Below, one piece after another: positions 3,504 to 61,144 of a stretch of 64,000 bases of DNA; within the stretch, counting starts at the first letter, position 1; each line of letters begins with the position of its first letter. Made by a program: the position numbers and the translations under genes. The notes under the pieces are model-generated. The model was not told the origin of the DNA and searched no databases. It saw only the letters and a list, made by a program, of their open reading frames with translations. The stretch comes from Pachysolen tannophilus NRRL Y-2460 (Eukaryota), in NCBI GenBank assembly GCA_001661245.1, contig KV454011.1, positions 348,108 through 412,107 on the forward strand. The letters are read 5' to 3'.

Positions 3504-4490
3504 ATGGCATCAGGTGAGTTATTGTTTAGAGAATCTTCGTTGAGGCTGCTGGATGATGAAACGCGGGAAGGGTTATTGAATGGTAATAATGGTATTACAG
3601 CATCGACATCATCATGTTCAGTTATTACTGCGACAGCGGTAAATGGCGGTTCAAATTCTGAGTTGAATAATAGAGAAGAAAATATTTCTAAGAAAAAATT
3701 ATTTACTTGGGATGAAATTCCTGAATGGCAAAGAGATAATCATTATATTAGAAAAGGATATGTTAGAGAAACTTTATCATTTGAGCTATGCTTAGATTCA
3801 TTAAGTTATTTCCATAATGAATCAGTTAATATTTATACACATTTAATACCTGGATTTTCAGTTTTATTATCATTAGGATTTTTTTTAATACTGGGGAAAC
3901 ATTTTATACCAGCATATCTGTCTACAACTTTTTTAGATTATTTTTTTATTGATTTATTTTTATTTGGATTAAGTTGTTGTCTTTCACTTAGTGCTGGGTT
4001 TCATTGTTTTAAATGTCATTCTGATCCTATATTAAGACTTGGAAACAAATTTGATTATTTAGGCATAGTAACATTGATTGTTACATCAATGGTTGGGATC
4101 ATATATTATTCTTATATTGATCATCCACTGATTCTGTATTTTTTCGCTAGTATCACTTTTATATTGGGATTTATATGTTCTATAATAAGTATAAAAGAAA
4201 AATTTAGTCATCCAGATTTTAGAGCTATTAGAGCATTTATGTTTATAATATTTGGACTTTCTGGTGTTTTCCCAGTACTTTATGGAATTCATACATTTGG
4301 ATGGGATGAATCAGTTAAGAGATCAAGTTTAAACTATTTAATAATGGAAGGAGCACTTTATATTACTGGTGCTTTGTTATATGCATTTAGAATTCCAGAA
4401 AAATTTAATCCAGGAAAATATGATTTCATTGGTCACTCACATCAAATATTTCATTTGTTTGTTATTTCTGCTCTGTATTGTCATTGGTAA
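3504..4490 (+). CDS. IZH2: PAQR/haemolysin-III family membrane protein (IZH1/IZH2-like); C-terminus truncated in this sequence by an inversion
   Basis: PEWQRDNHYIRKGY, HNESVNIYTH, KFDYLGI, RIPEKFNPGKYDFIGHSHQIFH. Stops one residue after the last conserved His; the missing tail is on the - strand at 4630-4677. Paralogue identity is uncertain. Confidence 0.88.
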   Translation: MASGELLFRESSLRLLDDETREGLLNGNNGITASTSSCSVITATAVNGGSNSELNNREENISKKKLFTWDEIPEWQRDNHYIRKGYVRETLSFELCLDSLSYFHNESVNIYTHLIPGFSVLLSLGFFLILGKHFIPAYLSTTFLDYFFIDLFLFGLSCCLSLSAGFHCFKCHSDPILRLGNKFDYLGIVTLIVTSMVGIIYYSYIDHPLILYFFASITFILGFICSIISIKEKFSHPDFRAIRAFMFIIFGLSGVFPVLYGIHTFGWDESVKRSSLNYLIMEGALYITGALLYAFRIPEKFNPGKYDFIGHSHQIFHLFVISALYCHW

Positions 4491-4536
4491 TAAAAACGAG
4501 GAAAAACTATTCGTTTGTGGTGGAGCCATATTTTAA
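4488..4536 (+). other. Displaced MON1 C-terminal coding segment, (C)NKNEEKLFVCGGAIF*
   Basis: t aat aaa aac gag gaa aaa cta ttc gtt tgt ggt gga gcc ata ttt taa resembles the fungal Mon1 ending (W..E.RLF..GGA.F*) but lies on the strand opposite MON1. Confidence 0.85.
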
Positions 4537-4629
4537 TAAACTAATTAAATTAAATTGTATAATAATTTTTTTTTTTTTATTTTATAAATTCATATAATCA
4601 AATCAATATAATTATATTTAAAATTGTGA

Positions 4630-4677
4630 TCAAACCAACTTTTCATGACAATATTTATAAGAACGAATTAACAGTTC
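4630..4677 (-). other. Displaced IZH C-terminal coding segment, E(A)LIRSYKYCHEKLV*
   Basis: The - strand reads gaa ctg tta att cgt tct tat aaa tat tgt cat gaa aag ttg gtt tga, resembling the tail of yeast Izh proteins after the final His (H..LL.SY...H). Confidence 0.8.
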
Positions 4678-6617
4678 CACCAATTAATAATTTTTTTGCA
4701 ACTCTTCATCAACAAATTCTTGTCCAAGAGACCATCATTCGTCAATAAATATAACTCATAATTTTTCGTTATTATCACAATACCTAATATTTCTTTATTG
4801 TTCGAATTTTTAAGCTTAACATATGAAATAAAATTACTTGTTTGACTATTCGAATTATAATGATTTAAAACAATAGTATGAAGTTTCTTGTAAATATACA
4901 TTATTTTGGAATATTTTTCATCTTCTTTCCCCCTCAAAATCAAGTTTCCAGAACAATTATCAATTTCTGGGAACACATATTGAATATGTTTCTTAGATTT
5001 GTAAATAAAATGACGAATTAATGGAGTAGGAATATCAACATTAATCAAGATTCCTGCTCTTGGAGAAAATAAAGATTTAACCATTTCTTTGTAAATGTTG
5101 TTTGTACCCATTATCATTGAATTAATGACATTATTACTCATTTCTCTCATTTCAAAAAATGAATTTCTATCGGCAGATATCAATATTAAAGCTATTTTAT
5201 TCTTATCTATTATGTAGTCATCAATTTCTTCATGATTGTAATCGTTGAATGTCTCAAATTTTGATAAATCAATAAACTTGATAAAACAATATAAAAATCC
5301 ATTGAGGTTAAAATTTGGTAAACAAATAGGAACCCAAAATTCTTCTTCACTGTATGAGTTATCATTTGAAGTTTTAAAAGTGTTTGTATTAAATACCATC
5401 TCAAATAATAACTGCAAATCAGAAGTATGTAACGAATGGCGCCTCGGTCTAAGGATACTTATCAATCTTCCTTTTGGAGCCACTATCAACCCATATAATA
5501 AATTAGGAGTCCTATTTGATAATAGTAGTTGATCCAATTTCAATCTTATAGATTTTTTTAATTTTAAACATTGTAAACCACCAATGATCAATCCCGGATT
5601 CAACCCATTACAAAGATCATTGCAAATTGAGTCTAATACAGAAAGATCAGATCGACCTAACAATTTCCTTAAATCAAAATTTTCTCTTTTAGTGAAAACT
5701 TTTAAAATATGAGGTCTTGATAATGTAGATAATAAGAAATTATATAAAAATTGTAATTGTTGTAATAATTGTAAATCACTTTCTGATTCAGTGGTAGATG
5801 ATGATGAAGAAACAGCCATTAAAATTATTGGCGACTGGTTTAAGAAAGTAAACCTCGTGTTGCTGGATGTAGTAAATGATTTCAAGTTATCGTCATTATG
5901 TTCATTGAAATAAGATATTATTGTTTGTATAATTCCCATATACCCTGTTATAACCTCATCTGAACCATGCATTGAGTATATTGGTTTCCCAGCAGAAGAC
6001 AAAATGAAGAAATGTTTCTTGTGCTTATAAAAATCATCAATATCGTTATTATTATCGGAATATTCTCTGGTGATGTTGAAATCAAATTCATCCAATATAT
6101 CATTCCCGGCTGGGCGTGTGCTTATATTACTTGAATATATGGATTCTCCCAACATACTCTTATTATCATTTATCAATTCTTCCAACAATTGCTCTACCCC
6201 ATCACCATTTTCATCTGCTTCTTCTTCTGTTCCAAGACCATCTCTCAATATATGATCACTGTGGTTTCTGAAAACTTTAATAGTTGGTGTACTGCTTTTT
6301 CCTGTAGAATTTGAAATAAAGCTTTCTAATTGCCCATCTCCATCCAGCTCAATATTGTCCAAGTTACCATCAAACACACTAACTGAATCAGCATTCAAAG
6401 ACATGGTCGGCTTAGCTCTTAAAATCGAGCTCGGGTTATACAATAATGACTTGTTTGGGAATAATGATATTGAAGACTTTGTATTGCTTAACAGTGGCCT
6501 GGTCAAAAGCGATGTTTGATTACCATCGTCGTCATCATCATAATAAGACGGCTTGAAATAATCATCATTCACCTCAACCAGGTTATTATTATTGATATTG
6601 CGGTTGTTCTGATCCAT
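4668..6617 (-). CDS. MON1: Mon1, subunit of the Mon1-Ccz1 Ypt7/Rab7 GEF; C-terminus truncated in this sequence by an inversion
   Basis: KKHFFILSSAGKPIYSMHG, NFDLRKLL, RPRRHSLHTSDLQLLF, EFWVPICLPNFN, RHFIYKSK. Ends abnormally as INWWNC*. Confidence 0.95.
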   Translation of the reverse strand: MDQNNRNINNNNLVEVNDDYFKPSYYDDDDDGNQTSLLTRPLLSNTKSSISLFPNKSLLYNPSSILRAKPTMSLNADSVSVFDGNLDNIELDGDGQLESFISNSTGKSSTPTIKVFRNHSDHILRDGLGTEEEADENGDGVEQLLEELINDNKSMLGESIYSSNISTRPAGNDILDEFDFNITREYSDNNNDIDDFYKHKKHFFILSSAGKPIYSMHGSDEVITGYMGIIQTIISYFNEHNDDNLKSFTTSSNTRFTFLNQSPIILMAVSSSSSTTESESDLQLLQQLQFLYNFLLSTLSRPHILKVFTKRENFDLRKLLGRSDLSVLDSICNDLCNGLNPGLIIGGLQCLKLKKSIRLKLDQLLLSNRTPNLLYGLIVAPKGRLISILRPRRHSLHTSDLQLLFEMVFNTNTFKTSNDNSYSEEEFWVPICLPNFNLNGFLYCFIKFIDLSKFETFNDYNHEEIDDYIIDKNKIALILISADRNSFFEMREMSNNVINSMIMGTNNIYKEMVKSLFSPRAGILINVDIPTPLIRHFIYKSKKHIQYVFPEIDNCSGNLILRGKEDEKYSKIMYIYKKLHTIVLNHYNSNSQTSNFISYVKLKNSNNKEILGIVIITKNYELYLLTNDGLLDKNLLMKSCKKIINWWNC

Positions 6618-6700
6618 TCTACTGAATCATTGTTCTTTATCGCTAATTAAATATAAAAAATAATAATAGTTACCTATTTTGATGATGTTTAATGTTACTT

Positions 6701-6732
<32 letters not shown>

Positions 6733-6763
6733 CAAATAAAATTGAACAGATAATAGTTCAAGA

Positions 6764-8785
6764 ATGGAAATTCAAGAGAGGAAACCAACGGCAAATTCTA
6801 TCAAGTTTGCCCATACCAGGACTCCTTCAACTTCATCCAATAATAATATAGATATCACTAATATTCAACCTCCGCCAGCTAGAAGATCATCTGTTTCGAA
6901 CTATGGTAGATCTTCAATAGATTCAATAAGGTCGAATTCTTCTGTGAATTCGTCAACTTCTTCCCTTGTGGTGGATGATCAAAAGAATAATGGGATTGGG
7001 AATAGTAATAACAATGATAGCAAATCATTTATGTTCAGGAACAAGAATAATTCATCGAATAACATGTTACCTTTAACTAAGACAGTTTCATTTAGCAGTA
7101 TATTAACAAATGATAATGCTAGTAATAACACTGGGAGCTCTGCTACTGGTAATGCCAATGTCAGAACTGCAAAGTCTGCAAATAGACTCAGTCGACTTTT
7201 TAATTCAAATCAGTTTATAAGAAGGAAAAAAAGTATAGATGATGTGAGTGGGAAACGTAATAAGGTGTATCAGAACGCTGATGACTCGTCGAGTGATTCC
7301 TTATCAAGCTCAATAGTATTATCTCCCAAAATCAAGCCAGTAGGTTCTTCAAATGAATCACTGGTAGGCTATAGAACTGCAAATCATGATAGTAGTGGTA
7401 GTCTTGGAGGTGGAGCCGGTGGTTCGTTATTGGAAAGAGAATTATCTAGGCTGAAATCGGTAAAGGATAAAAAAAGAGTTAAAAAACCTGTTGATCTTTC
7501 AATTCAGACATCAAATTTGATACCTAATAGCTCCAATACTGGTGTCAAGAGAATAATATCACCATTGGGAAGTAAAGCTCCAAGAGGAGAATTGGGTGAG
7601 AATTCAAACGACTCAACAGAATTATCAAGACAACACAAGTATCATCCTTTGAACCATTTGCATATAAACCATCATAATTTATTAGTAAAGTCAAGATTAC
7701 AGAAAGATTATAATCCTCTTTCATCATCTTCTTCGAATTCTAAATTGGTTTCCGATAGTGGACAAACATTGTATTCTTTTTCAACTACAAATAATAACAT
7801 TAACGGTGTTAGTAACACAACTGGAAGTGGTAATAAAGATGGAAGTACTGGAAACAATAATTCAGGAGGAATAGTCACGTCTACAGACTTGCAGAGAACC
7901 TTGATGCAATTGGAGAATTTAAATCTAAATAATTTGAAATATGTTGAAGACAAGGAAAATATTGCAGATGATTCTTGGAATCTTTTAACTTCATTGATTA
8001 TGCCCTTATTTAAATGTGATAATCTCAAGGTACCCATTGAAGATTTAAACAAGTTGTGTTATTTATACATTTTTTTAAGATTTCAAGAATTTTCAGATAG
8101 AAATGAAGCTCTTAGTTCAGTGAATTCCATCTCAAATGGTAATACAACACCATTGTCGAAAACAACAGTTTTTGATGAAGTTCAAGAGCTATTTAAAAAT
8201 GGTTTTAGCATATACCTTAACAATGTTTATCTGGTTGAAACCAGAGGTTCTTCAACTTCGCTCAAGTCATTATATTCTAGTTTATCACTATCGCAACTTT
8301 TAAAAAGAAAACCATTCCAATCCAAGTTGTCCTTATTATGGGATTATTTCTTGACACATATCTTGTATTATTTAGAAGCCATTTTTTTACCATTACAACA
8401 AGAAATTGATGGTGTTGGACCGATCTTAAGCCCATATAGTAAGCACAAAAAATTTTGGTTTGATTATTTGAAAATCGATAATTTGAAAACTGTCAGTAAA
8501 ATATATGAAATTAAATTATTACTGTTGTTAAATTTTAGAGATAAAGTGGTGATACCCTTATATGAGACAGAATATTTCAATAATCTCACCGAACAGTTTA
8601 TAATTGAAGAAGAAGATGAAGGAGATAACACCGAGGTGAAAATTGAAGATGAGAAGCATATAGAGGAATATTTACCTATTAAATTAAAGCTCATTCAATG
8701 CTTGAGCACATTAAAACGAATAGATTCAAGCGATACAAAACAGTACATCATAGAAAAGCTACTAAGAGAGACAATCAACAGTTGA
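6764..8785 (+). CDS. BIT61: TORC2 subunit Bit61/Bit2 (HbrB domain)
   Basis: Ser/Asn-rich N-terminus, then ADDSWNLL..IMPLF..LKVPIEDLNKL and LWDYF...ILYYLEAIFLPLQ (HbrB-like domain). Confidence 0.85.
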   Translation: MEIQERKPTANSIKFAHTRTPSTSSNNNIDITNIQPPPARRSSVSNYGRSSIDSIRSNSSVNSSTSSLVVDDQKNNGIGNSNNNDSKSFMFRNKNNSSNNMLPLTKTVSFSSILTNDNASNNTGSSATGNANVRTAKSANRLSRLFNSNQFIRRKKSIDDVSGKRNKVYQNADDSSSDSLSSSIVLSPKIKPVGSSNESLVGYRTANHDSSGSLGGGAGGSLLERELSRLKSVKDKKRVKKPVDLSIQTSNLIPNSSNTGVKRIISPLGSKAPRGELGENSNDSTELSRQHKYHPLNHLHINHHNLLVKSRLQKDYNPLSSSSSNSKLVSDSGQTLYSFSTTNNNINGVSNTTGSGNKDGSTGNNNSGGIVTSTDLQRTLMQLENLNLNNLKYVEDKENIADDSWNLLTSLIMPLFKCDNLKVPIEDLNKLCYLYIFLRFQEFSDRNEALSSVNSISNGNTTPLSKTTVFDEVQELFKNGFSIYLNNVYLVETRGSSTSLKSLYSSLSLSQLLKRKPFQSKLSLLWDYFLTHILYYLEAIFLPLQQEIDGVGPILSPYSKHKKFWFDYLKIDNLKTVSKIYEIKLLLLLNFRDKVVIPLYETEYFNNLTEQFIIEEEDEGDNTEVKIEDEKHIEEYLPIKLKLIQCLSTLKRIDSSDTKQYIIEKLLRETINS

Positions 8786-8988
8786 ACTGGATTTGGTTTT
8801 GTAATTTCTTTCTTTTCATTATATTGTATATATTGCGTAAATAGTTGGAAATGTAAGTTTTTTGGGGTATTATTAATTTCTGACACGTTTGATAAGGGTC
8901 TAAGATAAAGATGTAAATATAAAATAAAATAAAATAAATAAATAATTAAATATATAGTGAAATAGATAGATGAATAGTATGAGCAAGC

Positions 8989-10476
8989 ATGGCTTCAAGA
9001 TATAACAAGTTAGTTTCTTCTTTTAACTATTGCATGTCGGTGTTTACTGGGACATCTTCTGCTTTAAAATCTAAGCAAGAGATGTTGTTAGAGTTAAAGG
9101 CTTCTGTTTCAAATCTCTCATCGCAAGTTGATAAGATTATCGATTTACAACAAAAGATCGAACTTACAGAAGACGATTTGTTGAAGAACCCTGATATCAA
9201 GCTAATGAACGAATTAAAGGGGTTTCATTTGAGTTCCTCGGCTGTTGAAGGTAATAGGAAAAAAAAAGGTAAGACTAATAGTGATATTAGCAAATTTATT
9301 AATTTGATAACGTTTGCTAATAATTATCATTTATTAGATCAAAAATTAGCAAATACCACTAAGAAGAAAGTTTCATTTTTTAGACAGAACCATCAAGAAC
9401 CATTGAGAAGTTTTCCTGTGTTTCCGCCGATAAAAGATGGGAGATTGAAGAAGATTGCGCTTATTCATCCTGCGATAAAGAATGAAATGGAAGAGAAATT
9501 GAAAGTTCGTATACCTAATTCTATTTCTAAAGACAATCAACGATTTGAATGTTTTGGAGATGCGCTATTAGGCATGATTGTTTCTGAATATATTTTCAAA
9601 AGGTTCCCAAATGCTACTGATGGATTTTTAACATGTATTAGAAGTTTATTGGTTTCTAACGATACTTTGAGGTATTATTCTCGCTACGTTGATTTGGAAA
9701 ATATAATATATGAATTTACATCTGTTGAACTTGATAATGAACGAAATGCAAAGACTTTGGCAGATTGTTTTGAATCCTATATCTGTGGATGTTATTTTGA
9801 CGGTAAAGAAACTTATGGTAAGATGGTTGATTGCATATATCAATTAATAGAACCAATAGTGATTCAATTTGAGAAAAACTTGAAAGCATCTCATGGCTAT
9901 GGAGAATTAAAAGTAGATGAACTATTAAATGAGTGGTTTAATACTGATATATCATCAAAGAATTTATCAAAGGATTCTCAAATCGACTTGAAAAACTCAT
10001 CAAGTACTGATAAAAAATTGAAAAAACTTCCCGAATTACCCTTAGTTTCAACATCTACAAATGTATCTGAATCAAGTTTTCTGAAGAATTCCAAAAATCT
10101 AGATCAAAGATCTATCATTTTAAAACAAAAAGCATACGAAGAAAGTATATTAAGAAGCCAGAAAATTAAACAGCTAACTAAAGACGCTAAAAAAATCATA
10201 CTGATTAATTCAAAATTGAAAAGAATCCCTAAAAAGAAAAATTGTGTCAATATCTTGAACCAAATCTCTATAAAGAGCAAAGGAACTTTACCAATTTATA
10301 AAGTCATTATGGGTAAAAATGATAAAAAAATATGCGAACTCTATATAGACGGCGTGATGTTAACTCAGGCGACAGGCTCGTCTGTTAAGAAATCAATAAA
10401 TAATGCTGTCTTGGCATTATTCACCAACAAATTGGATAAGTTGGAACAGCATTTTGGAACAACCGTCAAGAGATAA
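8989..10476 (+). CDS. Class II RNase III (Rnt1/budding-yeast Dicer family) with N-terminal domain and C-terminal dsRBD
   Basis: ALIH.., NQRFECFGDALL, LVSN, KTLADCFESYICG RNase III motifs; dsRBD-like C-terminus (CELYIDGVMLTQATGSSVKKSINNAV). Confidence 0.85.
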   Translation: MASRYNKLVSSFNYCMSVFTGTSSALKSKQEMLLELKASVSNLSSQVDKIIDLQQKIELTEDDLLKNPDIKLMNELKGFHLSSSAVEGNRKKKGKTNSDISKFINLITFANNYHLLDQKLANTTKKKVSFFRQNHQEPLRSFPVFPPIKDGRLKKIALIHPAIKNEMEEKLKVRIPNSISKDNQRFECFGDALLGMIVSEYIFKRFPNATDGFLTCIRSLLVSNDTLRYYSRYVDLENIIYEFTSVELDNERNAKTLADCFESYICGCYFDGKETYGKMVDCIYQLIEPIVIQFEKNLKASHGYGELKVDELLNEWFNTDISSKNLSKDSQIDLKNSSSTDKKLKKLPELPLVSTSTNVSESSFLKNSKNLDQRSIILKQKAYEESILRSQKIKQLTKDAKKIILINSKLKRIPKKKNCVNILNQISIKSKGTLPIYKVIMGKNDKKICELYIDGVMLTQATGSSVKKSINNAVLALFTNKLDKLEQHFGTTVKR

Positions 10477-10542
10477 TCATCTTTCCTATGTATCTTCTAA
10501 TCATCTAGTCATCTAGTTTTGTACTTGTTGTTAAGCCGCGCA

Positions 10543-10553
10543 TGAAAAATTTT
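10543..10553 (+). promoter_or_regulatory. RRPE-like element upstream of DBP8
   Basis: TGAAAAATTTT about 150 bp upstream of a ribosome-biogenesis gene. Confidence 0.55.
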
Positions 10554-10693
10554 TTTAATTAAATTTTTTATATATATATATTTTTTTTTTCACCTCTATC
10601 ATATATATATAATAGTAATAATATATTTATAAATGTTCATTTAGAAGTGGACTAGTGGTAGAAATCGAATAAAGAGGTCTAGAGAGGTTTGAA

Positions 10694-12004
10694 ATGCCCA
10701 AGAGTTTTAGAGATATAGGTTTGCCTTCGTGGTTGGTTGAGAATTTAAATTCTTTAAACATAACACAACCGTCATTAATTCAAGAGAATACTATACCGCC
10801 TATACTTAAAGGTAATGATGTTATTGGGGGAGCAAAGACAGGTTCAGGTAAAACTATAGCTTTTGCAGCTCCGATATTGAGCAAGTGGTCTGAGGATCCT
10901 TTTGGAATATATGGACTTGTACTTACACCAACTAGAGAATTGGCTTTACAAATTGCAGAACAATTTTTAGCCTTGGGTGCTACGATGAATATTAGAGTTT
11001 CAGTTATTGTTGGTGGAGAAGATATTGTTAAACAGGCCATTGAATTGGAGAAAACTCCACATTTTGTTATTGCTACTCCAGGGAGACTTGCAGATCATAT
11101 TTTGAATAGTGGTGAAGATACTATTGCTGGTTTAAGAAGAGTTAAATTTTTAGTGTTGGATGAAGCTGATAGATTATTAAGTAATTCATTCAGCAGTGAT
11201 TTAGATAAAATCTTTAAAATATTACCTCGCTCTGAAAACAGACAAACTTTGTTATATACTGCTACAGTGACAGATGCTGTAAGGGAGTTGAAAAAAAATG
11301 ATAATACCAAGAAACCAGGATTATTCATATATGAGGTGGAAACCGTAGATAAAGTTGCAATTCCATCTACGCTTTCAATAAGTTATATATTTATCCCTTC
11401 ATATGTTAAAGAAAGTTATATACATAGTATTTTGAAATTACCAGAAAATTTAGATAAAACTGCAATTGTATTTGTTAATAGAACTCATACTGCGGAAGTT
11501 TTAAGACGTACATTGAGAAATTTGGAAATAAGAGTAACTTCACTTCATTCGGAAATGCCTCAATCGGAGAGAACTAATTCTTTACATCGTTTTAAAGCAT
11601 CAGCAGCAAAAGTATTGATCGCTACGGATGTTGCATCAAGAGGGTTAGATATCCCACAAGTTGAATTGGTTATAAATTATGATATTCCACAAGACCCTGA
11701 TGATTTTATACATAGAGTTGGTAGAACTGCAAGAGCAGGAAAAAAGGGTGAATCTATAAGTGTTGTCACAGAGAAAGATGTAGAAAGAGTATTAGCTATT
11801 GAAAATAGAATCAATAAGAAAATGGACAAATACGATTTAGTAAACGATGATAAAATCATTAAGGAAAGTCTTACGGTGGTAAGTGCTGCAAAGAGAGAAG
11901 CATTAATGGACATGGAAAAAGAAGGTTTTGGAGAAAGAAAAAAAAATAACAAGAGGAAACATGAAAGTAATGGAAAGAAAAAAAACAAAAAAAAGAACTT
12001 ATAA
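10694..12004 (+). CDS. DBP8: DEAD-box RNA helicase Dbp8 (40S biogenesis)
   Basis: GGAKTGSGKT, KWSEDPFGIYG, PTRELALQI, DEAD, TAT motif III, HRVGRTAR. Confidence 0.95.
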   Translation: MPKSFRDIGLPSWLVENLNSLNITQPSLIQENTIPPILKGNDVIGGAKTGSGKTIAFAAPILSKWSEDPFGIYGLVLTPTRELALQIAEQFLALGATMNIRVSVIVGGEDIVKQAIELEKTPHFVIATPGRLADHILNSGEDTIAGLRRVKFLVLDEADRLLSNSFSSDLDKIFKILPRSENRQTLLYTATVTDAVRELKKNDNTKKPGLFIYEVETVDKVAIPSTLSISYIFIPSYVKESYIHSILKLPENLDKTAIVFVNRTHTAEVLRRTLRNLEIRVTSLHSEMPQSERTNSLHRFKASAAKVLIATDVASRGLDIPQVELVINYDIPQDPDDFIHRVGRTARAGKKGESISVVTEKDVERVLAIENRINKKMDKYDLVNDDKIIKESLTVVSAAKREALMDMEKEGFGERKKNNKRKHESNGKKKNKKKNL

Positions 12005-12075
12005 ATAGACTTGACAGTAATTGAAAGATTTATTTTATATATATATTATTATATTACTATACACTTGTGTAAAGT

Positions 12076-14373
12076 TTAAAATCCTTTTTTCTTTTGTTTT
12101 GTAATATGTGCCCTTAATACCCTTTGCTTATCACGAAGAGACAATTTCGCTTTTCCTTGAACTTGTTTCTTATGGATCATCATAACGAAATTCTTCTTTC
12201 TTGCCTTTTCTCTATTAGTTGTTGAATGGTTCGAACTATCTCTCTTACCTTTCTTTGAGCCAAATTTTTCTCTATCTTCTTTACCTTCTTTAGCATGAGC
12301 AATTCTTTCTTCACGAAGTTGTTTGTATTTAACTGGCCCAACTAAAGAACTTGAATCAACCAGCTCCTCGTTTGCTTGTTTAATACCATTATATTTATTA
12401 GATGTACCCATAAGTTCAGAAATACCAGTTTCGGCTTGAAGTTCCTTTAATTTGGCAAAATCTGCTGGAGTTAAAACCCTTGATGATAAGAATTGAGCTA
12501 ATTGCAGTTCCCTATCCTTTTCTGTCATTGCAGCAGTGATTGATTTCTCTTTATTTATCTTTTGCTTCTTTTTACTTGGTTCACCTTCTACTTCATCCTC
12601 ATCCTCATCTTCAGATGATAAATCAAGATCAGAATCTTCTTCTTCTTTTTCTTTTCCTTCTTTTTGATCATCATCATCATTATCATCGTCATCATCACTG
12701 CTGACATTGTACTCCTTATCAGAGTCAACAGTGACCCACTCACCTTCAATCTCTTCATCTTCACTTTGTCCTTCTTGGACTTCCCAATTACCTAAATCTT
12801 CTTCATTTTCACTATTATCAAGACCTTGTTCTTTTCTCCATTTATCCAATAATTCTAAACCTGGGATAGTTGTAACAGTGTTTGTATCAACACCAAATTG
12901 TAATCTTGAACTATGCGGTATTTCATCTTTTTGTAATTTAATTGAAGCAGTTTTACCACGATCTTTTTTCAAAAGCATTTCTGGAGCAACTTCTCTATAA
13001 AGGGAAATTAAAGATCTAGCAGCCATCATTACTGATTTTGCCTTTGAATCCTTATATTCAGTTAAATCTTGTAATAAAGTAGAATCAATAGCTAAAGGTG
13101 CTCTAGTTAAAATTTCTCTTATAGTATTAATACCTGCAGATGCAACTTCTGAGGCAACACCATCACTTACAAATTCATCTGCAATTTTTTTAACAACCAT
13201 ATTAATAGATTCAGGTGGAACCAAATCATGAGAAGCTTGAGCTGCTGATGCCATTATTTGAGTAACATCTTTTTGCTTTGGAATTAAATATTTCAAGAAA
13301 AAAGAATAAATTCCCAAGACTGTTAATTTATGAGTACCAATTAATCTAGATATTAAATTCATTAATAAAATTTTTTGTTCTAAATCAAATTTATGAGAAT
13401 TTTTTTTATTAGAAAGATGATTTTCAAAAAGTGATTCAGCAAAACCTTGAGGATCTCTTAATAAATGAATAGCTGAAAAATTTAAATATGATGTAGATTT
13501 ATTTAATTTCAGCAGTTTTTTTTTCTTTAAAGTTTTAGCAGCTTGTTCAAATTTCTTACCTCTTTTACTTGAAAATTTATTTATTTGTAATTTATGTCTT
13601 AAAGCATTTAAATCAACACCTTCATCTTCATCACTTGAATTTTCTTCAAAATTTTCATCTCTTTCTTTATCTGCACCCAAGAAAAATCTTACACCAGCCA
13701 TACAAACTTTTACATCTTGATGTAATGAAGCTTGAGTCATAATTTCAACAGTTCTTGAATCATCCCATATACCTCTTCTCCATAATTCTCTAGTTAACTT
13801 TGTTGCCCATAAACCTTGAGAATTGTTTGAATTTTCTTCTAATAAATTAAATAATAATGCCTGAGTTGATCTATTTAATTTTTGATTCTTTGTACCAGTA
13901 TTAGTAGATTTTAATAAAGAAATTAAAGTACTATAGATTTGCCTTCTTAAAATTTTTGAATTTTGTATAGATTCTTGAGTTAAAAGTGGGAAAATTGTTT
14001 GAATTAATAATTCAGCAGAAATTACTTTCTTATTACGAAGTGTAGTTAAACATTGTATAATTTTTTCTCTTAATTCAACAGTTAAATCTCTATGATTATT
14101 TGTTAAAATATTAATCAAATCATTTGGAAAATTCGCAGTCTCCTCACCATAACACGTTGAAACTGCTGTTAAAAACCCAATCAAGTCTTGAAAATCATTC
14201 AATGATTCAGCATTTGAAGATGCTGGATTCAATAAAAAAATATCTCTTAATGATTCATAATGAGCATACTGTTGTAAAAATTCTTCATGATAAGACTCTG
14301 GATCACGACGCACCACATTCTGCAACAATATAATATTGGTAGGCAATATAGCCGCTCTCCTTAACTTTCCCAT
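12076..14373 (-). CDS. SDA1: Sda1, 60S biogenesis factor
   Basis: [51 protein letters not shown]. Confidence 0.97.
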
Positions 14374-14519
14374 AACCCCAAATCTTTTCTTTTATTATTA
14401 TAAGTCTGCTATGAATTAAAACCTCTATTCCAGAAATTCAAAATTCAATTAATTAAATAACTTAACCTGTTATATATATATATATATATATATATAACAT
14501 AGAATCTATACTATTTTAT

Positions 14520-14539
14520 CTCATCTGCAGGAAAATTTT
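14520..14539 (-). promoter_or_regulatory. PAC-like (GATGAG) plus RRPE-like element upstream of SDA1
   Basis: + strand CTCATC followed by GAAAATTTT, next to the gap. Confidence 0.45.
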
Positions 14540-49239: not shown

Positions 49240-49315
49240 AAAAATGAAAGACAATTCATTTTCAGCAATCAAAGATTCATTTCACCAGATATATTTGTTG
49301 TATACTTATTATTCC

Positions 49316-50641: not shown

Positions 50642-51266
50642 ACTATTTGCAATTAGCACTCAATATATATAAGTTGCAATTATTGATTTAAATATTATTA
50701 TTAATAATAATATATTTATAATTATATATATATATATTAATATAAATTTTTTGAATTATAATATGAGAACTTTACCTCCAAGGTTTTATTGGAAAATTTT
50801 GTTGGTTGTTTTACTCTCTTTCAACTCCACTGATTAATTTTCGTTCAATTTCCGTATTTTAAATGTTTTTTTTTTTTAAAAAAAAAAGAATTTTTTTTTT
50901 CAACACATTTTTTAAGTGTTGATTTATGTTATTATTGAGAGACTACAGTTTGCCGTTTTTGAAAAAAATAATTAAACGAAAAACACTTATATTTAAATTT
51001 CAAATTGATACCACCAGCCGCTTCTCCAGTTGTGAAATAACCTATTCCAACTGATATTCGAAAAAAACCCTGTTACTACCTGTAATAAAGATAAAAAAAA
51101 AAATAAAAAAAAAAAAAATGAAAGAAAAATGAAGGAAAAAACAGCTCTCATGAAACATATAACCAAAATACAAATTTCAAATAACAATAATCTTAAAATA
51201 AAAAAAATAAAAATTGCAAATTAAAAAAAAAAAAAAAAAGAAAAATTCAATTAAACATGAATTTCA

Positions 51267-54044
51267 TTATGAATCACTACCGGTATATTCACTTGAAGAT
51301 AAAACTTCATAATCTTCTTCTTCCAAGATATCTTCATTAGGAAGATCATCTTCGCTTTCAGAAACATCAACTTCTGTCATGCTACTACATTCTTCTTCTT
51401 TCTTGAATTCGCTATCATCAAAGTCCTCCATTTTATTTTCAGTTAGACTCAGGCCAACATCTACAAATTCAGGTTCAGTCGATAATTTGTTAGCAATATC
51501 ATCATTACTAGCAGTTTCTGATGCTGAGATAAAATCTGTAGAGACACTACTAGAGACATCCTCTTTATGATCAACTAAATGGGGTTCCTTTACTAACGAA
51601 GCCGTTGATCCACTGGTAGAAGATTCACGTGGCAATTTAGGCAAGACCATGGTTGAACTTAGTGATGATGAGAGACTTGATGGAGGAGTTGTCGTGGTGC
51701 CAGCACTTACGGCAACTGAATTTGATATTAAATCATCTCGATCTGCCTCTTGTATCTCATCAGTTGTTTCTTTTCTTTGATTAAAAGCAAATCCAAATTT
51801 TCTTAAAATATCTTCAGATTTGTTATAAGTTTCTTCAAAATTATCGCATAATTTTAATTTGAAATTAACTGATCCAGTGTCTTCCTTAAATGAGAAACTG
51901 TCATAAAATATTTTTTCTGATGTATTCAAAAAATTAACTTCAAGAATTTTTAATAATCTATCGTCAAGATTTGATGATTTGAAATAATCATTTAAATTAA
52001 CAGAAATATCTTTATTCTTCAAAGATTCCAAAGGATGTGAACCAATATTGACATTAATAACCCTACCATTAGAAAATGTTAATAAAAGTGTTGAATTTGA
52101 AGGGATAACATCTTTGGTGTTGTTGAAAAAAGTTAATCTAATCAAATTATCTCTTCTATCCAATTTTTTCAAATAAACATAGCCATCAGTGGTATCTTCT
52201 GCTTCAGATTCTAATTGATCATCAACATCGCTTGTATGACCTTCATCTTGTTGTATTTCTTCAACAACTTTATTTTCTGGTTTTTCCAAGTTGGATTCTA
52301 AATCTAAAACATTATTTTCCTTTGCAATAGGATCAGAAACAGGAGTGTTTGTACTTTCAACTGGGCCATCAAAATTGATTCCATAATTCATAACATAAAA
52401 TTTGTAAATATCCATAATCTCCTCATCTACAAAAGATTCTTTAATTTTTTTCTTGAAAAATTCAATCAATTCATCGTATTTTTCAGCTTTAAATTTCAAA
52501 TCCATGATTGAGTTACCACCTAATTGCGAACCAAATAGTTTATCCAACATTTCAGTTGATAAATTCTCCAAGGTTATAAACATATCAGATTGTGGAATAC
52601 CATGTTTAGAAATAAACTTATCAATATCTTCCAACGAAGTAGTGTTGGTCTTGAAACTATTCTTGCATAATAAATTCTTTGTCTCTTTTGATAAAGGTTC
52701 TTGAATTTTCAATAATGGATGGCTTGAGTCATGGTTTAAACTTCCACGTTTATTTTGCTCACAATTTTCACACAAGTCATAGTCATCACAGATTGCACAC
52801 TTATACCTAATACCACGAATTGGACTTGGGTTGGATCCCAATTGACAAACATCACAAAAGACACCATGATGAATTGGTTTTGGTGGATGAATTGCCTTTA
52901 ATAAATACTTGCAATCTCCCGGATATTCGCAAGCAATGAAATTATGGGTTTTCTTATGAAGACCTTGATCACAATTATTTTTAGATTTGCAATTTTCACA
53001 TAAATCGAAATTTGGACAATCTAAGCACTTGTAACGAGTACCTTTAATAGGACCTGTTTCACAAATATCACAAATGACGTTAAGATGAACAGGTTTATGT
53101 TGTGATTCTGTAGAAACAATCTTATCGATATGGGTATAATGTGGTAACGAAGAAGAAGAGTCTTTTGAAACTGTATGATTATGAGTTTTTTTATCTTTTG
53201 TATTTAATTTTTCAAAAACTTTCCCAGCAATTTCATCACTTAAACGATCAACATTAAGAAATAACTTTACCAATGCATCAGCGTCAAGCTTATTAGTATC
53301 ATCATTATCAGAAGAAGAAACGTTTTCTTCTTTTTTATTGATCTTTGAATTTTGATTAATTGATTCTTGAATATTTAAATTATTAAACTTGATTAATTCT
53401 TCAAATTTACCAATCAAATTGGTAATTTGTTGTCTCTTAGAATCAACAGTTGAAGCAAAAGTAGAAGTAACAGAAACTGGCAATTGATATTGAATTTCAG
53501 CCTCAGTCTCAGCTTTATTTTTAACCTTTTCCTTATCCTTAGCTTTAGCCTTATCCTTAGCTACATCATCATCATCATCATTTCCAGTTAGAACTGTAGT
53601 ATCAATAGAAGAACCAGTAGCGCTTGGAGTTACCGATAAAGTATTAATTTTTGTAATGACAATCTTGATTGAATTTCTAACGCCCAATGATCTTTTCAAA
53701 CATTGATAATCTTTTTGAGTACATAAAGGAACCAACGATTTTTGCTTGTTTGATTTCCTCTCAAGCGAAATCTCATCATCTTGATTTAATTTAAAAGCAT
53801 TCTTTAAAATCCTTTCAAAATCTTCCTTGTTCACAATTTTATCCATTGAATTAATTGCAATTACTTTTCTAATGTTATCGCCATTATTATTATTATAACT
53901 AATATTGTTATTATTATTATTATTGTTGTTGTTGTTGTTACCATTATTATTACCGTTAATTAGAGTTGCTTTAACAATATAGTTATTAGCGTTATTGACT
54001 CTAACGGAGTCACCTTCCAGAGACAACTCAACTAATGAAGACAT
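51267..54044 (-). CDS. Nbr1/Atg19-like selective autophagy receptor (PB1-like, 2 ZZ zinc fingers, Ig-like domain, C-terminal AIM)
   Basis: [26 protein letters not shown] and CDVC...[22 protein letters not shown] fingers; [10 protein letters not shown]; acidic tail EEEDYEVL. Likely ATG at 54044. Confidence 0.8.
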
Positions 54045-54477
54045 CAATGAATAAAACAATCTTTAAAGATACAAATCTGATTGATTGATTGATTGATTGA
54101 TCGATTATCACCCAGAAGATGGATCTTTGAATTTGAAATATATGAAAATTGATTACAAGTGGCAAACCCGTCAAAAAGGTTTTATATGAAATGAATTAAT
54201 GCAAATTGCCGCCGATAAAGATTTACAAAAGGTAAAAAAAAAAAAAAAAAAAAAAAAAATGAATGGCGCATTTCCTCTTTGGAGAAGCGGAAGGAGAAAT
54301 TGTCAACCAAAAAAAAACAAACACACACACACACACACACACATTCACACAAAACGGAGAAGTTTTCTTTTGAAAACGGAAACGTACAAGTTAAAAATAA
54401 GTACTAGAAGTAGTAGTAGCAAAACAAAGAAAATTGTATTTATAAATCTATATTCAGTTCACAATTTACAATTCATA

Positions 54478-55085
54478 ATGACTATAGATATAAAGTATCC
54501 TAAGATTGTTGTATTTGATTTAGATTACACATTATGGCGTGAGTAATAACCTAAGGAAAAAGAAAGAAAGAAAGAAAATGTATACTAATTTTTTAAAATT
54601 TTATATTATTAGCCTGTTGGTGTGATACACATATTTCCAAACCAATAAAATCATTAAACCCATCTACAATTATTGATAGTAATCATTTTAAAATATCTTT
54701 TTATAAAGATGTGCCCAAAATTTTGCACGAATTAAATTCAGCAGGAGTTATAATCGCAACAGCAAGTCGAACTTGTGACCCACAAATTGCTAAAAAAATG
54801 TTAAAACTATTAAAATTAAAAAATGGAGATGGAGATGGAGATGATTTGATTTCAGCATATGATATAATTGATCATATGGAATGGGGAACTTTTTCCAAGA
54901 TAAATCACTTGAAAAAAATTGCATCAAGATTTAAAGTTGATTACCGAGAAATGGTATTATTTGATGATGAGTTACGTAATAAAGACGTGGAATCCAAACT
55001 AGGAGTAAAATTTATCCATATACTGGATGAATCTATAGGCTTGACCTATGACGTTTTCCTCAGAGGCTTGAAAAACAGAGACTAA
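54478..55085 (+). CDS. MDP1: Magnesium-dependent phosphatase 1 (HAD family, Yer134c-like); exon 1 54478-54538, intron 54539-54612, exon 2 54613-55085
   Basis: The intron GTGAGT...TACTAAT...TAG restores VFDLDYTLWPCWCDTH; ASRT, K..H, LFDDE.RN motifs. Confidence 0.92.
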
Positions 55086-55445
55086 AAAAAAAAAAAGTGT
55101 CAGTCAGCCAAAAAGAGTCAGTTAAAAAGGTCAGCCAAAAAGGGCGGACAAACCAGGTAAAAGTCGGCGATATATCCGCAGCAAGCACCTGAAACGACAC
55201 ATTCAATTTTATTTTGTTCCGTTTAGCACGACCTGCGTTTTTTCTTTTTTTTTCTTTAGAGTTTTCTGGTAAATTGCGTGATTAACTAAGCCTTGTTTAA
55301 AAATTAGTTTAAAAATTATATATATGTCTCTGGTTATATGTTTTTAATCTAATAAAAAAAATTTTTATCTTTTTTTTTTTTTTTTTTTTTTCTCTTTTTC
55401 TTTTTTATTGTAATGATATTAGTGATATATTAAACAATAGTCAAG

Positions 55446-57227
55446 ATGATTGTTGATTATAATAGATTACTGTTTTTATTAACAGCTTTAACGACTGTTT
55501 TTGCCTTCCCGGTTGAACAGTCAATTTTTAAGTATTTACCATTGGATAGAGAAGGTAGTGTAAACTCTCATGGTAAAAATGATGAACCAAGTGGTGAAAT
55601 TGTTACTGCACCAACTGCTGAAGAAGCTGCTTCTATTGCAAGAACATTAGTTGCAAGAGAATCGATAACCCAATTTTCTACTGTTAACCAGGAGGGAGAC
55701 TTCAAGGGTTATCCTGTTTCATTCCCAGAGTATTATGCCGATACCAACAAAGATGGTAATCCATTTTTGTTATTGGTTGATATTTCATCTGGTTTCCAAA
55801 ATTATAAACAAGGTAGTGATTTAACTCTTACTGTTAAAGTTGGTGATCATCGTTTGGGTGAACATGTTAATCCAAGGTATCCACACTCATTTGTTACTTC
55901 TACTTTAGGTTCACCAAGAGTTTTACTTAGAGGTAAATTAGTAAATGCTACTGAAAAGTACTCTGAACTGGAACTTGTTGGTGTTGCAAAGAGTTTTATT
56001 CGTAGACATCATGATGCTGCTTTATGGTTACCTGGAAACAAGGTTCATGAAACCTCATGGTGGCAATTTGAAGTTGAAAGCTTGTATTTTATTGGTGGTT
56101 TTGGTGATCGTTCATTTATTGGAGAAATTCCAGTTGAATTATATCAAAATGCTACTTTATTAAGCCATGAAGAATATAGCAAGTTTATCAGAGCTTTTGA
56201 AGGTAGGAGAGACCATGAAGAAGGTTCAAAAGGTAGCCGTCATCCATTAGGTCCTCCTCCTCCACACCACGATGATGAACATGATGATGATATTCATGAT
56301 GATGATGATGAACATTTTGAAAAAAAAGGTTTAAAATCAAAATCTAAGTCATGTGGTGGCAGTTCTTCCAAGAATGGTGCAAACTCTAAAGGTATTAATA
56401 AGAAAATGCACCATAAGAACAAGAAGGGTGGATTAAAATTTGAAATTCATAAACTTTTGGCTAAGGTAGGTTTAGTTAGTGAAAAGAAGCACCATAAAGG
56501 TGGTAGACATATGAAACAAAACCTGCACTTGAACAAGTCCCATGATGGTGAATTTGAAGAAAAAGAATTCAACGGTAAGGATTTTAAAGGTAAAGATTTC
56601 AAGGGTAAAGAAGATTTCAAAGGTAAAGAAGAATTCAAAGGTAAAGATTTCAAAGGTAAAGAAGAGTTCAAAGGTAAAGATTTCAAAGGTAAAGAAGAGT
56701 TCAAAGGTAAAGATTTCAAAGGTAAAGAAGAGTTCAAAGGTAAAGATTTCAAAGCTCACAAGGGAGGAATGAAAAAGAATCAGGATTCAAAAAAAACCGA
56801 CTCTAAAGAACATGACTTCAATGACAAGGACTTTGAACATCACAAAATGGGTTTAAAGAAACAACATCCAGTTGAGGGAAATGAAGAGTCATTTGCAAAA
56901 GATTTCAAAAAATTTGATAATAAGGGTAAGAAACTTGAAAGTGGTAAAGGTTCAGCAGCTCCAGAAGATAAACATTTTGAAAAAATTGATAAAATTTCTA
57001 AATTAGATAAGGATGTACCACCACCACCACCACCACAAAAGTTTGAAAAAGATGATAAACATTTTGAAAAATTTGAAAAAAATTTCAAGTTTGATAAAGA
57101 TGATACTAATACTCCTCCTCCATCAGCTCCAAAGTTTAAACAAGAAAAACATTTTGAAAAAGAATTTTCAAAAGAAGGTGCTGAAGAGATTGAAGAAGTA
57201 GAAACTTTAAACGAAGAGTCAAATTAG
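55446..57227 (+). CDS. Secreted/vacuolar CREG-like split-barrel (pyridoxamine-phosphate-oxidase-like) protein with long His/Asp- and Lys-rich repetitive tail
   Basis: Signal peptide; AASIARTLV, YPVSFPEYYAD, SPRV.L.G, F..RHHDAALWLPG, YFIGGFGDRSFIGEIPVELY. Confidence 0.8.
   Translation: MIVDYNRLLFLLTALTTVFAFPVEQSIFKYLPLDREGSVNSHGKNDEPSGEIVTAPTAEEAASIARTLVARESITQFSTVNQEGDFKGYPVSFPEYYADTNKDGNPFLLLVDISSGFQNYKQGSDLTLTVKVGDHRLGEHVNPRYPHSFVTSTLGSPRVLLRGKLVNATEKYSELELVGVAKSFIRRHHDAALWLPGNKVHETSWWQFEVESLYFIGGFGDRSFIGEIPVELYQNATLLSHEEYSKFIRAFEGRRDHEEGSKGSRHPLGPPPPHHDDEHDDDIHDDDDEHFEKKGLKSKSKSCGGSSSKNGANSKGINKKMHHKNKKGGLKFEIHKLLAKVGLVSEKKHHKGGRHMKQNLHLNKSHDGEFEEKEFNGKDFKGKDFKGKEDFKGKEEFKGKDFKGKEEFKGKDFKGKEEFKGKDFKGKEEFKGKDFKAHKGGMKKNQDSKKTDSKEHDFNDKDFEHHKMGLKKQHPVEGNEESFAKDFKKFDNKGKKLESGKGSAAPEDKHFEKIDKISKLDKDVPPPPPPQKFEKDDKHFEKFEKNFKFDKDDTNTPPPSAPKFKQEKHFEKEFSKEGAEEIEEVETLNEESN
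56568..56753 (+). repeat. Coding minisatellite (FKGKD/FKGKEE units; 33-nt higher-order repeat)
   Basis: Near-perfect tandem copies of TTCAAAGGTAAAGAAGAGTTCAAAGGTAAAGAT. Confidence 0.95.
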
Positions 57228-57671
57228 GTATGTGATAGGTTTTTTTTAATTAATTTTTTTTTTTAGAGGTTTTTTTAAATTGTAATTCATTTTTAAAATA
57301 TTTTTTTTATTTTGTTGTTAACGGTAAAATATTAGTAAGTAGTATATTGTATTAATCATGTCGTGTTATCAGTAACAAAAAATTATATATAATATAAATA
57401 TTTTGTTTTTTTTTTTTGTTTTTTTTGAAGAAAAAAAAAAAAAAATAAAATCTTTTAAATAAGGTAAAAATACGCGTAACAAAGGGAAAACAAGGAAAAA
57501 AAAAAAGAAAACAGATAACGCTTGTTAGCCGCCTATCGATATCAATTATATAAATACAAGATAAATTTTTCTTTGTTGAGTTTCAATAATTTTCAAATAG
57601 GTTTATTCATTAATTAATTTAATAAATAAATATTGAATTAATAAAACATAATTGTGGGAATTCTTTGAACA

Positions 57672-57932
57672 ATGAGTCCACAACCAAGGATAAACAGGCG
57701 CTATACAGCAGTTGCAGCAGCAGCAACAACTTCTACAATAGTAATATTAGGTATTGGATATTTAGTTTTACAAACATTTCCTCATTTGAAAAATTATTTA
57801 CCAAAATTTAACACTGAATTCGAAGAGGGAAACGAAGATAAGAAAGATGAAGCAAAAGAGGAGCAACAACAATTAGAACTGGAACTGGAACTGGAACTAG
57901 AACCTACACTGGAGTCGACACTGGAAAATTAA
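57672..57932 (+). CDS. Small (86 aa) single-TM protein with acidic tail, unknown function
   Basis: ATG in A-rich context; basic N-terminus, hydrophobic TIVILGIGYLVL, Glu-rich tail; more GC-rich than its flanks. Confidence 0.6.
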   Translation: MSPQPRINRRYTAVAAAATTSTIVILGIGYLVLQTFPHLKNYLPKFNTEFEEGNEDKKDEAKEEQQQLELELELELEPTLESTLEN

Positions 57933-58897
57933 ATTTGTTAGTTATATAATTTGTTAGTACAAATTTGTTAGTAATTAGGCAAGCGCGGTAGTGTATAGTA
58001 TATGAATCTCAATGCTTTTGGTAACTCAAACCCATACGACCGAAGATGTAGTTAAAAAAAAATTTAAAAAAATTTAAAAAAATTAAAAAAATTAAAAAAT
58101 TAAAAAAATTAAAAAATTTCCTCCGCACAATAAAATTTTTTTTATAGTTCAAGCAGAATTTTATGAAAGAAGTACAAAAATGAAGTCGTGCACTGCACTC
58201 TAAGTGATGACTGCATATGAAAAAGACCCGCTTTTGGTGTCCCGCACTTTGCTTTTTTTTTTTCACTTTACTGTGGTCTATTGTTACCCCCTTTAACTTT
58301 GTCCCATACTCTCTTATTCTTCTTATAATTATTTATGTCACTCATCTTAAACTGGGGGAAATCATGTACGAATATGCACGACTGTTCATTTTACTTAATA
58401 TTACAATAAGAAAAAAGAAACAAACTTTTTTTTTTTTTTTTTGCTGCAAAAGTTTAATTGAAAATCTCCTCTCAAAATACGAAATTTTCTTAGTTAAAAT
58501 CTTTTTAAATACATCCTTTATGTATGTAATCACTGGGGTTTTTGTGTATTGATCATTTAAAATGAAAAAAACAAAAAAAANAAAAAAAGGTGGAGATAAA
58601 CTATATAATTTTTTTTTAATTAAAAAGGAAATAAAGAAAATAAGTAAGTAAGTGAAGGAAAAAAAAACGTTTTACGTTTTATTTTAGATTATTCTATATT
58701 TTATTTGTTTAAAATTTTTTTGAAACAACTAATAAAAGAATTAACTATATAAATAGCTAGTTATTCTCATAATTAAATTATTTTAAGAGAAGAAGAAGAA
58801 GAAGAAGAAGAAAAAGAGAATTCTTTTTTTTTTTTAATTAAATATAAATATAAAATAAATTTTTTATAACAATAAATCAATTTTTACATATTCACAT

Positions 58898-59734
58898 ATG
58901 AGAATGAGCAATACCCATAATCACTACCACAACAATTCCGATGTTGATATCGAGAAACAGTTGAATAATTCAGAAGGGGAAGATGTTTCCACTAAAAATG
59001 CTTCTGTTTCAAGAATTATGACTTCTGGTGAGAATGATGAATATGTTCATATTGGTAATCAGAAATATTATAGAAGTGAGCTTTTACAAGCTTTTGGTGG
59101 TACTTTAATGCCAGGGCTTGCTCTGCCTTCAGTTCATAAATTTGCAAATCCTGCTCCATTAGGTTTATCTGCTTTTGCTCTTACAACCTTTGTTTTATCA
59201 TTAATAAATGCTCAAGCTATGGGTCTTGAAACTGCTAATGTTGTTGTTGGTTTAGCTATTTTTTATGGTGGTTTAATTCAATTATTAGCTGGTATGTGGG
59301 AAATGGCTGTTGAAAATACTTTTGGTGCTTTGGCACTTTCTAGTTATGGAGGTTTTTGGATGTCATTTGGAGCAATTAATATTCCATGGTTTGGAATTAG
59401 TGCTGCATATACAAATACAAGAGATTTAGAAGTTGCTCTTGGTTTTTATTTGTTAGGTTGGGCAATCTTCACTTTTATGTTGATGTTGGCTACAATGAAA
59501 TCAACAGTTGCATTTTTTTCACTTTTTGCAACTTTAGATCTTACTTTCTTATTATTAAGTGTTGGTAATTTGGCTCCCTCAGCAAACTGTACAAAAGCAG
59601 GAGGTATTGTTGGTGTAATCACTGCCTTTGTTGCTTGGTACAATGCTTATGCAGGTTTGGCAACTCATGAAAATGCTTATGTCACTGTAAAAGCTTTCCC
59701 AATTCCAGTTATTGGTGGTAAAAAGAAAAATTAA
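58898..59734 (+). CDS. ADY2: GPR1/FUN34/YaaH acetate/ammonia transporter (Ady2/Ato family)
   Basis: AFGGTL.PG, HKFANPAPLGLSAFALTT, FYGG..Q, SYGGFW. Paralogue identity is uncertain. Confidence 0.9.
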   Translation: MRMSNTHNHYHNNSDVDIEKQLNNSEGEDVSTKNASVSRIMTSGENDEYVHIGNQKYYRSELLQAFGGTLMPGLALPSVHKFANPAPLGLSAFALTTFVLSLINAQAMGLETANVVVGLAIFYGGLIQLLAGMWEMAVENTFGALALSSYGGFWMSFGAINIPWFGISAAYTNTRDLEVALGFYLLGWAIFTFMLMLATMKSTVAFFSLFATLDLTFLLLSVGNLAPSANCTKAGGIVGVITAFVAWYNAYAGLATHENAYVTVKAFPIPVIGGKKKN

Positions 59735-60334
59735 TTGAAAATCAAATTTAATATCATTTATCATTTATCATTATTTAACAACATTGTTCTCCACAGCTTT
59801 TCACTCTTATGTCTTAATTACTTATTTAAAATATTTATTTTATTTATATTATTTTTTTTCATTATTATTTATTCTAGGTCGTTCTCTTTCTTTTTAGCTT
59901 AGCTTTTACTTAATGAATACAATTTAATTTATGATTTCTTTTTTCTTAATTTTTAATTTTTATCGAATCAATTATTCGTGTGTATTCATTTATTTTAATA
60001 AAGGAATGAAAAGAAAGAAAATTAATTAATTTAATCATTTTTTACAACTATTTGTCAAATCTAATAACCATGGTAAAGGGGAAAAGAGAAAAATGGTTTT
60101 AATTCAATCATCATCTATCTCTTCCTTTCTCTTGTATAAAAGTTGAAATTGAAGATTTTAAGAGAAAATTGTGGTCGTGTTCCAAAAACAGAGAATTTTC
60201 TTTCTGCAAAAAAAAAATAAAAAAAAAAAAAAATTTTTCAGATAAAATAAAATTTTTCAAAAAAATAAATTTATACGGTATTAAAGATAGATAAATAGTT
60301 AACTAGTAGTATTTTGTTTTAATTGGTATTAAAG

Positions 60335-61144
60335 ATGGTTAAATTAGAATCTGCACCAAAGAGACAGAAGTTGGATTTATCAGGGGAAGTGGAGTTGTCT
60401 AAGAATGATAGTAAGACTAGAAATAGCAAGGATTTAAAAAGCGATGAGGAAGATGAGGAAGATGAGGAAAAATCAAATTTGGATCAAGATGATGATTTAA
60501 GCGAGAGTAAAGATGAGAGTGATGTTGCTTCTAGTCTTGGTGAGGATGAACCAGACTTGGAAGATGTGAGTTCTGATGAGAGCTTGGGTAGTGGCTCCTC
60601 CAACTCCGATTCCGATTCCGATTCTGACGATTATTCCACCAAGAAGAAATCTAAACCTAAAGGAGATGATAATTCAGAATCTTTTTCTAATGCATTTAAT
60701 GCTATAATAAATTCTAAATTAAAATCTTATAATAGAAAAGATCCAATATTGGTAAGATCAAAATCGAAATTACAAAAATTCCAAGATGAAAAATTAGAGC
60801 AAAAGGCTAAAAGACTGTTATTAGCAGAAAAAAATCTGCAATTAAATAAGGATAGAATTAAAGATATTTATCAAATAAATGCTGGTGGAAATGATGATGG
60901 TAATGATGGTGAACAAGTGAAAAAAATAATGCAAAGAGAAAAATTTTTTAAAAAAACTGCTCAACGTGGTGTTATAAGGTTATTCAATGCTATATTATTA
61001 ACTCAAACATCTACTATAAAAGAATTAGAAACTGAAGAAAAAGAAAAGGGGAAAGTAGGGAAAATTGCTGAAAAAGAATTGTTAAATGAAATATCAAAGG
61101 AAAAATTTATGGATTTAATACAGGCCGCAGGTAGGAAATCTTAA
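60335..61144 (+). CDS. RRP15: rRNA-processing protein Rrp15
   Basis: Acidic N-terminus; FSNAFNAII.SKLK.YNRKDPIL, AQRGVIRLFNAI, SKEKFMDLI. Likely ATG at 60335; RRPE-like AAAATTTTTCA upstream. Confidence 0.93.
   Translation: MVKLESAPKRQKLDLSGEVELSKNDSKTRNSKDLKSDEEDEEDEEKSNLDQDDDLSESKDESDVASSLGEDEPDLEDVSSDESLGSGSSNSDSDSDSDDYSTKKKSKPKGDDNSESFSNAFNAIINSKLKSYNRKDPILVRSKSKLQKFQDEKLEQKAKRLLLAEKNLQLNKDRIKDIYQINAGGNDDGNDGEQVKKIMQREKFFKKTAQRGVIRLFNAILLTQTSTIKELETEEKEKGKVGKIAEKELLNEISKEKFMDLIQAAGRKS

Follow-up and report, generated by a model that had tools for sequence, protein, structure and literature searches.

CUG decoding in the closest described yeasts

The reassignment of CUG to alanine in the budding yeast Pachysolen tannophilus is already established knowledge, and the 64-kb window described here (the whole stretch of DNA that was analyzed, 64,000 nucleotides, numbered from its first letter) adds nothing new to it for biology. 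Riley et al. (2016) is reportedly the second of the two papers from that year in which CUG-Ala decoding was discovered. In the window, the original prediction had proposed, from a handful of in-frame CTG codons, that the nuclear genes read CUG as alanine. We conclude that the window is almost certainly nuclear DNA of P. tannophilus, from strain NRRL Y-2460 or one indistinguishable from it, with CUG decoded as alanine under translation table 26, the NCBI listing of which names P. tannophilus nuclei and assigns CTG to A.

The tRNA and proteomic evidence for this code comes from the literature. According to the excerpts of Mühlhausen et al. 2016 (PMC4937558) on which we draw throughout, the tRNA(CAG) of NRRL Y-2460 groups with the alanine tRNAs, has both G3:U70 and A73, and lacks an extended variable loop. 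In the same excerpts, liquid chromatography-tandem mass spectrometry placed alanine at 97.2% of 907 fully supported CUG positions. In the mechanism proposed in the literature, an alanine tRNA would have had its anticodon mutated to CAG while keeping G3:U70 and A73, the identity elements of the alanyl-tRNA synthetase, and lacking a long variable arm. Because these elements are kept and the long arm is absent, such a tRNA would be charged with alanine and would pair with CUG.

The alanine-decoding clade consists of Pachysolen, Nakazawaea and Peterozyma in the part of PMC5951914 available to us, which credits the discovery to two papers from 2016. CUG-Ala is given as diagnostic for the order Alaninales, family Pachysolenaceae, in the corresponding part of PMC11182611. 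The same codon has been reassigned in related budding yeasts, namely the Candida relatives (Serinales, table 12) and the CUG-Ser members of the Ascoideales; according to the PMC4937558 excerpts, the synthetase of the tRNA that captured CUG does not read the anticodon in either the CUG-Ser or the CUG-Ala case. Unlike in the CUG-Ser yeasts, the amino acid here is alanine, and the CTG columns of the window fit serine worse than alanine. The window does not differ from the P. tannophilus code of table 26 and the Alaninales; it is the known case itself.

Homologue columns at the CTG codons of the window

The window contains 26 ATG-initiated open reading frames (ORFs) of at least 150 amino acids, spanning 165..63770. 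In-frame CTG makes up 97 of their 16,353 codons (0.59%), and 24 of the 26 ORFs carry at least one, a density that is about the genome-wide figure for P. tannophilus in the PMC4937558 excerpts (16,824 CUG positions in 5,288 predicted proteins). Altogether, 35 of the 97 codons were compared with homologues, 23 of them in deep alignments and 12 in pairwise alignments to solved structures. The deep alignments were built for four proteins:

3504..4490, plus strand: Izh/PAQR-type (HlyIII) gene, 7 CTG codons, 4 of them alignable to 119 homologues
12076..14373, minus strand: Sda1 gene, 4 CTG codons, all 4 alignable to 119 homologues
28154..30769, plus strand: Vps16 gene, 6 CTG codons, 4 of them alignable to 149 homologues
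32887..35103, plus strand: gene for an LCCL-domain membrane protein, 6 CTG codons, 4 of them alignable to 119 homologues

We ran a blind column test of the Codetta type on these proteins, in which every CTG of the query was masked as X and the self match was removed. For each amino acid, log-odds were summed over those homologue columns in which gaps took up less than 50% of the weight, using Henikoff weights and a pseudocount mix of 0.15. Since the query held X at every CTG, the alignments carry no bias at this codon. With 16 of the 23 CTG codons alignable, alanine received the highest score (+6.0), followed by serine (+1.6), threonine (-4.8) and leucine (-21.2), and it remained at the top at pseudocount mixes of 0.05, 0.15 and 0.3. 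As a control, the same test called 58 of the 59 other sense codons correctly; the single miss was CGA, for which there was one column. Leucine thus falls about 27 log units below alanine and can be rejected, and serine is disfavored, which bears out the proposal that CUG stands for alanine.

Columns in which one residue reached at least 75% were counted as conserved. Their distribution over the codon classes was as follows:

CTG (Izh 324, Vps16 393, Vps16 556): 3 conserved columns, 3 on alanine
GCN (alanine) codons: 61 conserved columns, 57 on alanine
Serine codons: 73 conserved columns, 7 on alanine
Leucine codons: 126 conserved columns, none on alanine

Under the standard code, CUG would encode leucine and the matches to alanine would be due to chance. 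It is true that homologues have Leu or Ile opposite a few CTG sites. However, all three conserved CTG columns fall on alanine, as against 0 of 126 for the leucine codons, and the score for Leu is -21.2 as against +6.0 for Ala. In the homologues, leucine has a mean frequency of 0.552 where the query has a Leu codon, but of 0.024 where it has CTG; for Ile, Leu, Met, Val and Phe together, the means are 0.80 and 0.12, respectively. Sets of columns resampled from leucine codons were called alanine in 0% of cases. A leucine reading is therefore vanishingly unlikely.

Serine is the closer competitor, being the second-best call, and would make the window similar to the Candida (Ser1) or Ascoidea/Saccharomycopsis (Ser2) clades, as in table 12. 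Some CTG columns contain much serine. In raw counts over 119 homologues, residue 288 of Sda1 (13510-13512) aligns with Ser in 62 and Ala in 53, and residue 287 with Asn in 96 and Ser in 21; at residue 212 of Vps16, Thr occurs in 32 and Ser in 30 homologues. Against serine, the conserved CTG columns lie on alanine in 3 of 3 cases, while serine codons do so in only 7 of 73, and serine scores 4.4 log units below alanine. When 16 serine-codon columns were drawn at random 10,000 times, the observed Ala-minus-Ser margin was reached in 0.11% of the draws and alanine was called in 0.55%. The organism is, moreover, P. tannophilus, for which the proteomics excerpted from PMC4937558 gives alanine. We consider serine decoding extremely unlikely.

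The source of the DNA is indicated by its proteins. In a search with CTG masked as X, the best match to the ORF at 3504-4487 was the public hypothetical protein PACTADRAFT_63101 of P. tannophilus NRRL Y-2460 (record P0001). They agree over 328 of 328 positions, save that the record has alanine at the seven CTG codons. Across the four records P0001, P0121, P0241 and P0391, there were 23 differences from the standard translation, all of them at CTG and all of them to alanine. The original prediction had placed the genome in the clade of Pachysolen, Nakazawaea and Peterozyma, and the protein identity to the P. tannophilus record agrees with this, the composition of the clade being that given in the cited parts of PMC5951914 and PMC11182611.

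In a check of the homologue sets for mistranslated CUG-Ala relatives, we found no homologue with Leu at two or more of the alanine-consensus columns. Separately, some public homologues in the sets P0242-P0510 carry Leu at near-universal serine columns, P0507 at 5 of 12 and P0289 at 4 of 4. These proteins look like genes of CUG-Ser yeasts that were publicly translated with the standard code.

Individual CTG sites and their weak conservation

The original prediction had cited five CTG codons as sitting where homologues have alanine (29330, 29819, 60815, 4473 and 59123), together with a short repeat. All five positions are in-frame CTG codons with the flanking residues as quoted. Three of them proved to lie on alanine columns when the CTG of the query was read as X: residue 393 of Vps16 (29330-29332; Ala in 133 of 149 homologues), residue 556 of Vps16 (29819-29821; Ala in 115 of 149, Ser in 22) and residue 324 of Izh (4473-4475; Ala in 94 of 119, Ser in 21). 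The remaining examples lie in three further ORFs:

57672..57932, plus strand: small ORF of 86 codons, 5 CTG codons (57879, 57885, 57891, 57909, 57921)
58898..59734, plus strand: Ady2/Gpr1_Fun34_YaaH gene, 1 CTG codon (59123, residue 76)
60335..61144, plus strand: Rrp15 gene, 2 CTG codons

Support at residue 161 of Rrp15 (60815) is thin, as only two solved homologues could be compared, with Ala in 6c0f_w and Arg in 8i9r_Ch. Residue 76 of Ady2 lies upstream of the stretch that aligned to two solved bacterial homologues. The three GAA CTG units of the small ORF, which had been read as a repeat of Glu and Ala, are indeed present, but they are neutral and no evidence for alanine. The full run is TTA GAA (CTG GAA)x3 CTA GAA; with its flanks, the standard code would turn it into an unbroken (LE)5, and such an extension of the repeat would, if anything, count in favor of leucine. 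As a separate observation, this ORF is predicted to contain a hydrophobic segment and an acidic tail, and its CTG density is about 10 times the average of the window.

The pairwise alignments to solved structures covered 12 further CTG sites with 23 aligned residues (Leu 3, Ile 1, Ala 2, Ser 1, Thr 1, Pro 1, Asp 4, Glu 5, Lys 3, Arg 2), with the Vps16 sites already counted left out and each protein entered once even where it had several identical or variant chains. The residue pattern is not leucine-like and rejects leucine: Leu or Ile makes up only 4 of the 23. Because the sites are mostly variable surface positions, the pairwise alignments do not separate alanine from serine. The single CTG of alpha-tubulin is uninformative, since it lies at a variable position with Asp and Thr in homologues. 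Other CTG codons fell in gaps or outside the alignments shown: residue 76 of Ady2, residues 370 and 422 of Orc5, residue 671 of Vps16, residues 13, 54, 126, 157, 328 and 564 of Obg, and residues 287, 377 and 465 of Vps27.

Several observations weigh against decoding as alanine. Neither ARAGORN nor Rfam found a tRNA(CAG) within the 64-kb window. The margin of alanine over serine from the window data alone is modest (4.4-4.5 log units over 16 columns), and the alanine in the public records is not independent evidence, because the annotators chose table 26. At single sites, residue 511 of the GCP protein aligns to Leu and Ile, residue 909 of Utp20 to Leu and Arg in two homologues, and residue 168 of Rrp15 to Lys and Leu in two homologues; residue 494 of the LCCL-domain protein is hydrophobic in homologues (Ile 45, Ala 33, Val 19). 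In addition, the CTG columns are far less conserved than those of the GCN codons: 3 of 16 reach the 75% threshold, as against 61 of 107. In resampled GCN sets, the Ala-minus-Ser margin was 36 +/- 8, and 99.98% of the sets lay above the observed 4.5.

The weak conservation recurs from site to site. Taken together, the columns give an alanine signal that exceeds chance, but alanine reaches at least 50% in no more than 4 of the 16 CTG columns that could be aligned, and all four alignable CTG codons of the LCCL-domain protein are at variable columns. In Sda1, residue 671 (12361-12363) aligns with Ala in 72 and Glu in 36 of 119 homologues (raw counts), and residue 623 with Gln or Lys. Most CTG codons occupy variable, hydrophilic positions. 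Across the 26 ORFs, the mean Kyte-Doolittle value of the eight neighboring residues was -0.80 for CTG, -0.25 for alanine codons and -0.40 for leucine codons. We considered this neighbor hydrophobicity as a test of decoding and rejected it, as CTG codons have more hydrophilic neighbors than leucine, alanine and serine codons alike, so that the measure does not discriminate.

We infer that the CTG sites are conserved so weakly because they are young, having arisen after the reassignment by mutation at tolerant positions. The lineage would have lost and then recaptured CUG, and the present CTG codons would have arisen recently from other codons. Such young sites fit the tRNA-loss-driven model as it appears in the PMC4937558 excerpts.

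Alternatively, CUG could be ambiguous, mostly alanine with a meaningful minority residue, similar to the stochastic use of Ser and Leu in Ascoidea asiatica. The CTG columns are indeed far less alanine-like than the GCN columns, a few of them are hydrophobic in homologues, and 8 ambiguous and 18 non-alanine positions are reported among the 907 CUG positions in the excerpted proteomics of PMC4937558. In the same excerpts, however, the unambiguous codon AUG shows similar numbers of differences, and CUG is judged to be as unambiguous as AUG. The young age of the CTG sites is also a simpler account of their weak conservation, and a sequence by itself cannot reveal ambiguity. We regard ambiguous decoding of this kind as very improbable. 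A related and still faint chance is that CUG is no plain synonym of GCN, and that a low-level or context-dependent dual decoding, as alanine and a minor residue, is biologically meaningful; room for this, rather than for the young age of the sites alone, is left by the strikingly loose constraint on CTG sites and their hydrophilic character relative to ordinary alanine sites, together with the handful at which homologues have hydrophobic residues. Decoding of CUG as alanine remains the reading that we adopt.

Gene content, gene models and the translation table of the window

The window is AT-rich, with a G+C content of 24-34% in 4-kb windows. Pfam matches mark most of the 26 ORFs as ordinary budding-yeast genes, with names that include Asd, MINDY, Izh/HlyIII, Mon1, Rnt1, Sda1, GCP/Spc97-like, Obg/Mtg2, Vps27, Vps16, Orc5, alpha-tubulin, Utp20, Nhp10, Ady2 and Rrp15. 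A single tRNA gene, which is also the sole match to a structured-RNA family, was found by ARAGORN and Rfam in the 64 kb and plays no role in the change of decoding:

20088..20163, minus strand: tRNA-Cys(GCA)

A run of 620 N at 14540-15159 lies between the Sda1 and GCP/Spc97-like genes, and there is a lone N at 58581; these mark masked or unresolved sequence.

Three gene models drew our attention. The public Izh/PAQR model has 355 amino acids, 27 more than precede the in-frame stop at 4488-4490, and the Pfam match to HlyIII stops at residue 328, exactly where the profile itself runs out (position 224 of 224). The C-terminal extension presumably stems from a predicted intron and may be an error of annotation. 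The GCP/Spc97-like frame (15623-18049, plus strand) has its first ATG at 16178 but already runs open for 185 codons before it, and this upstream part resembles, by eye, the N-terminal region of a solved homologue. For these two reasons, the gene probably starts in an exon further upstream, and the 623-amino-acid ORF is probably a truncated model. The alpha-tubulin gene (35533-37074, minus strand) is split: the listed ORF starts at an internal Met, which matches residue 120 in the solved chain, its frame is open up to 36720, and a separate frame within 36799-37074 encodes the tubulin N-terminus. With the protein in two frames, an intron thus lies between them.

The original prediction had also held that the ORF translations were wrong at CTG, and this is the case: the standard code is in error at 97 CTG codons and affects 24 of the 26 ORFs that reach 150 amino acids. 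ORF tracks made with the standard or bacterial table put leucine in the place of alanine at about 0.6% of codons, and table 26 is needed for this genome. With no more than 16 alignable CTG codons, 64 kb of P. tannophilus DNA is enough to reject leucine decisively and to prefer alanine over serine.

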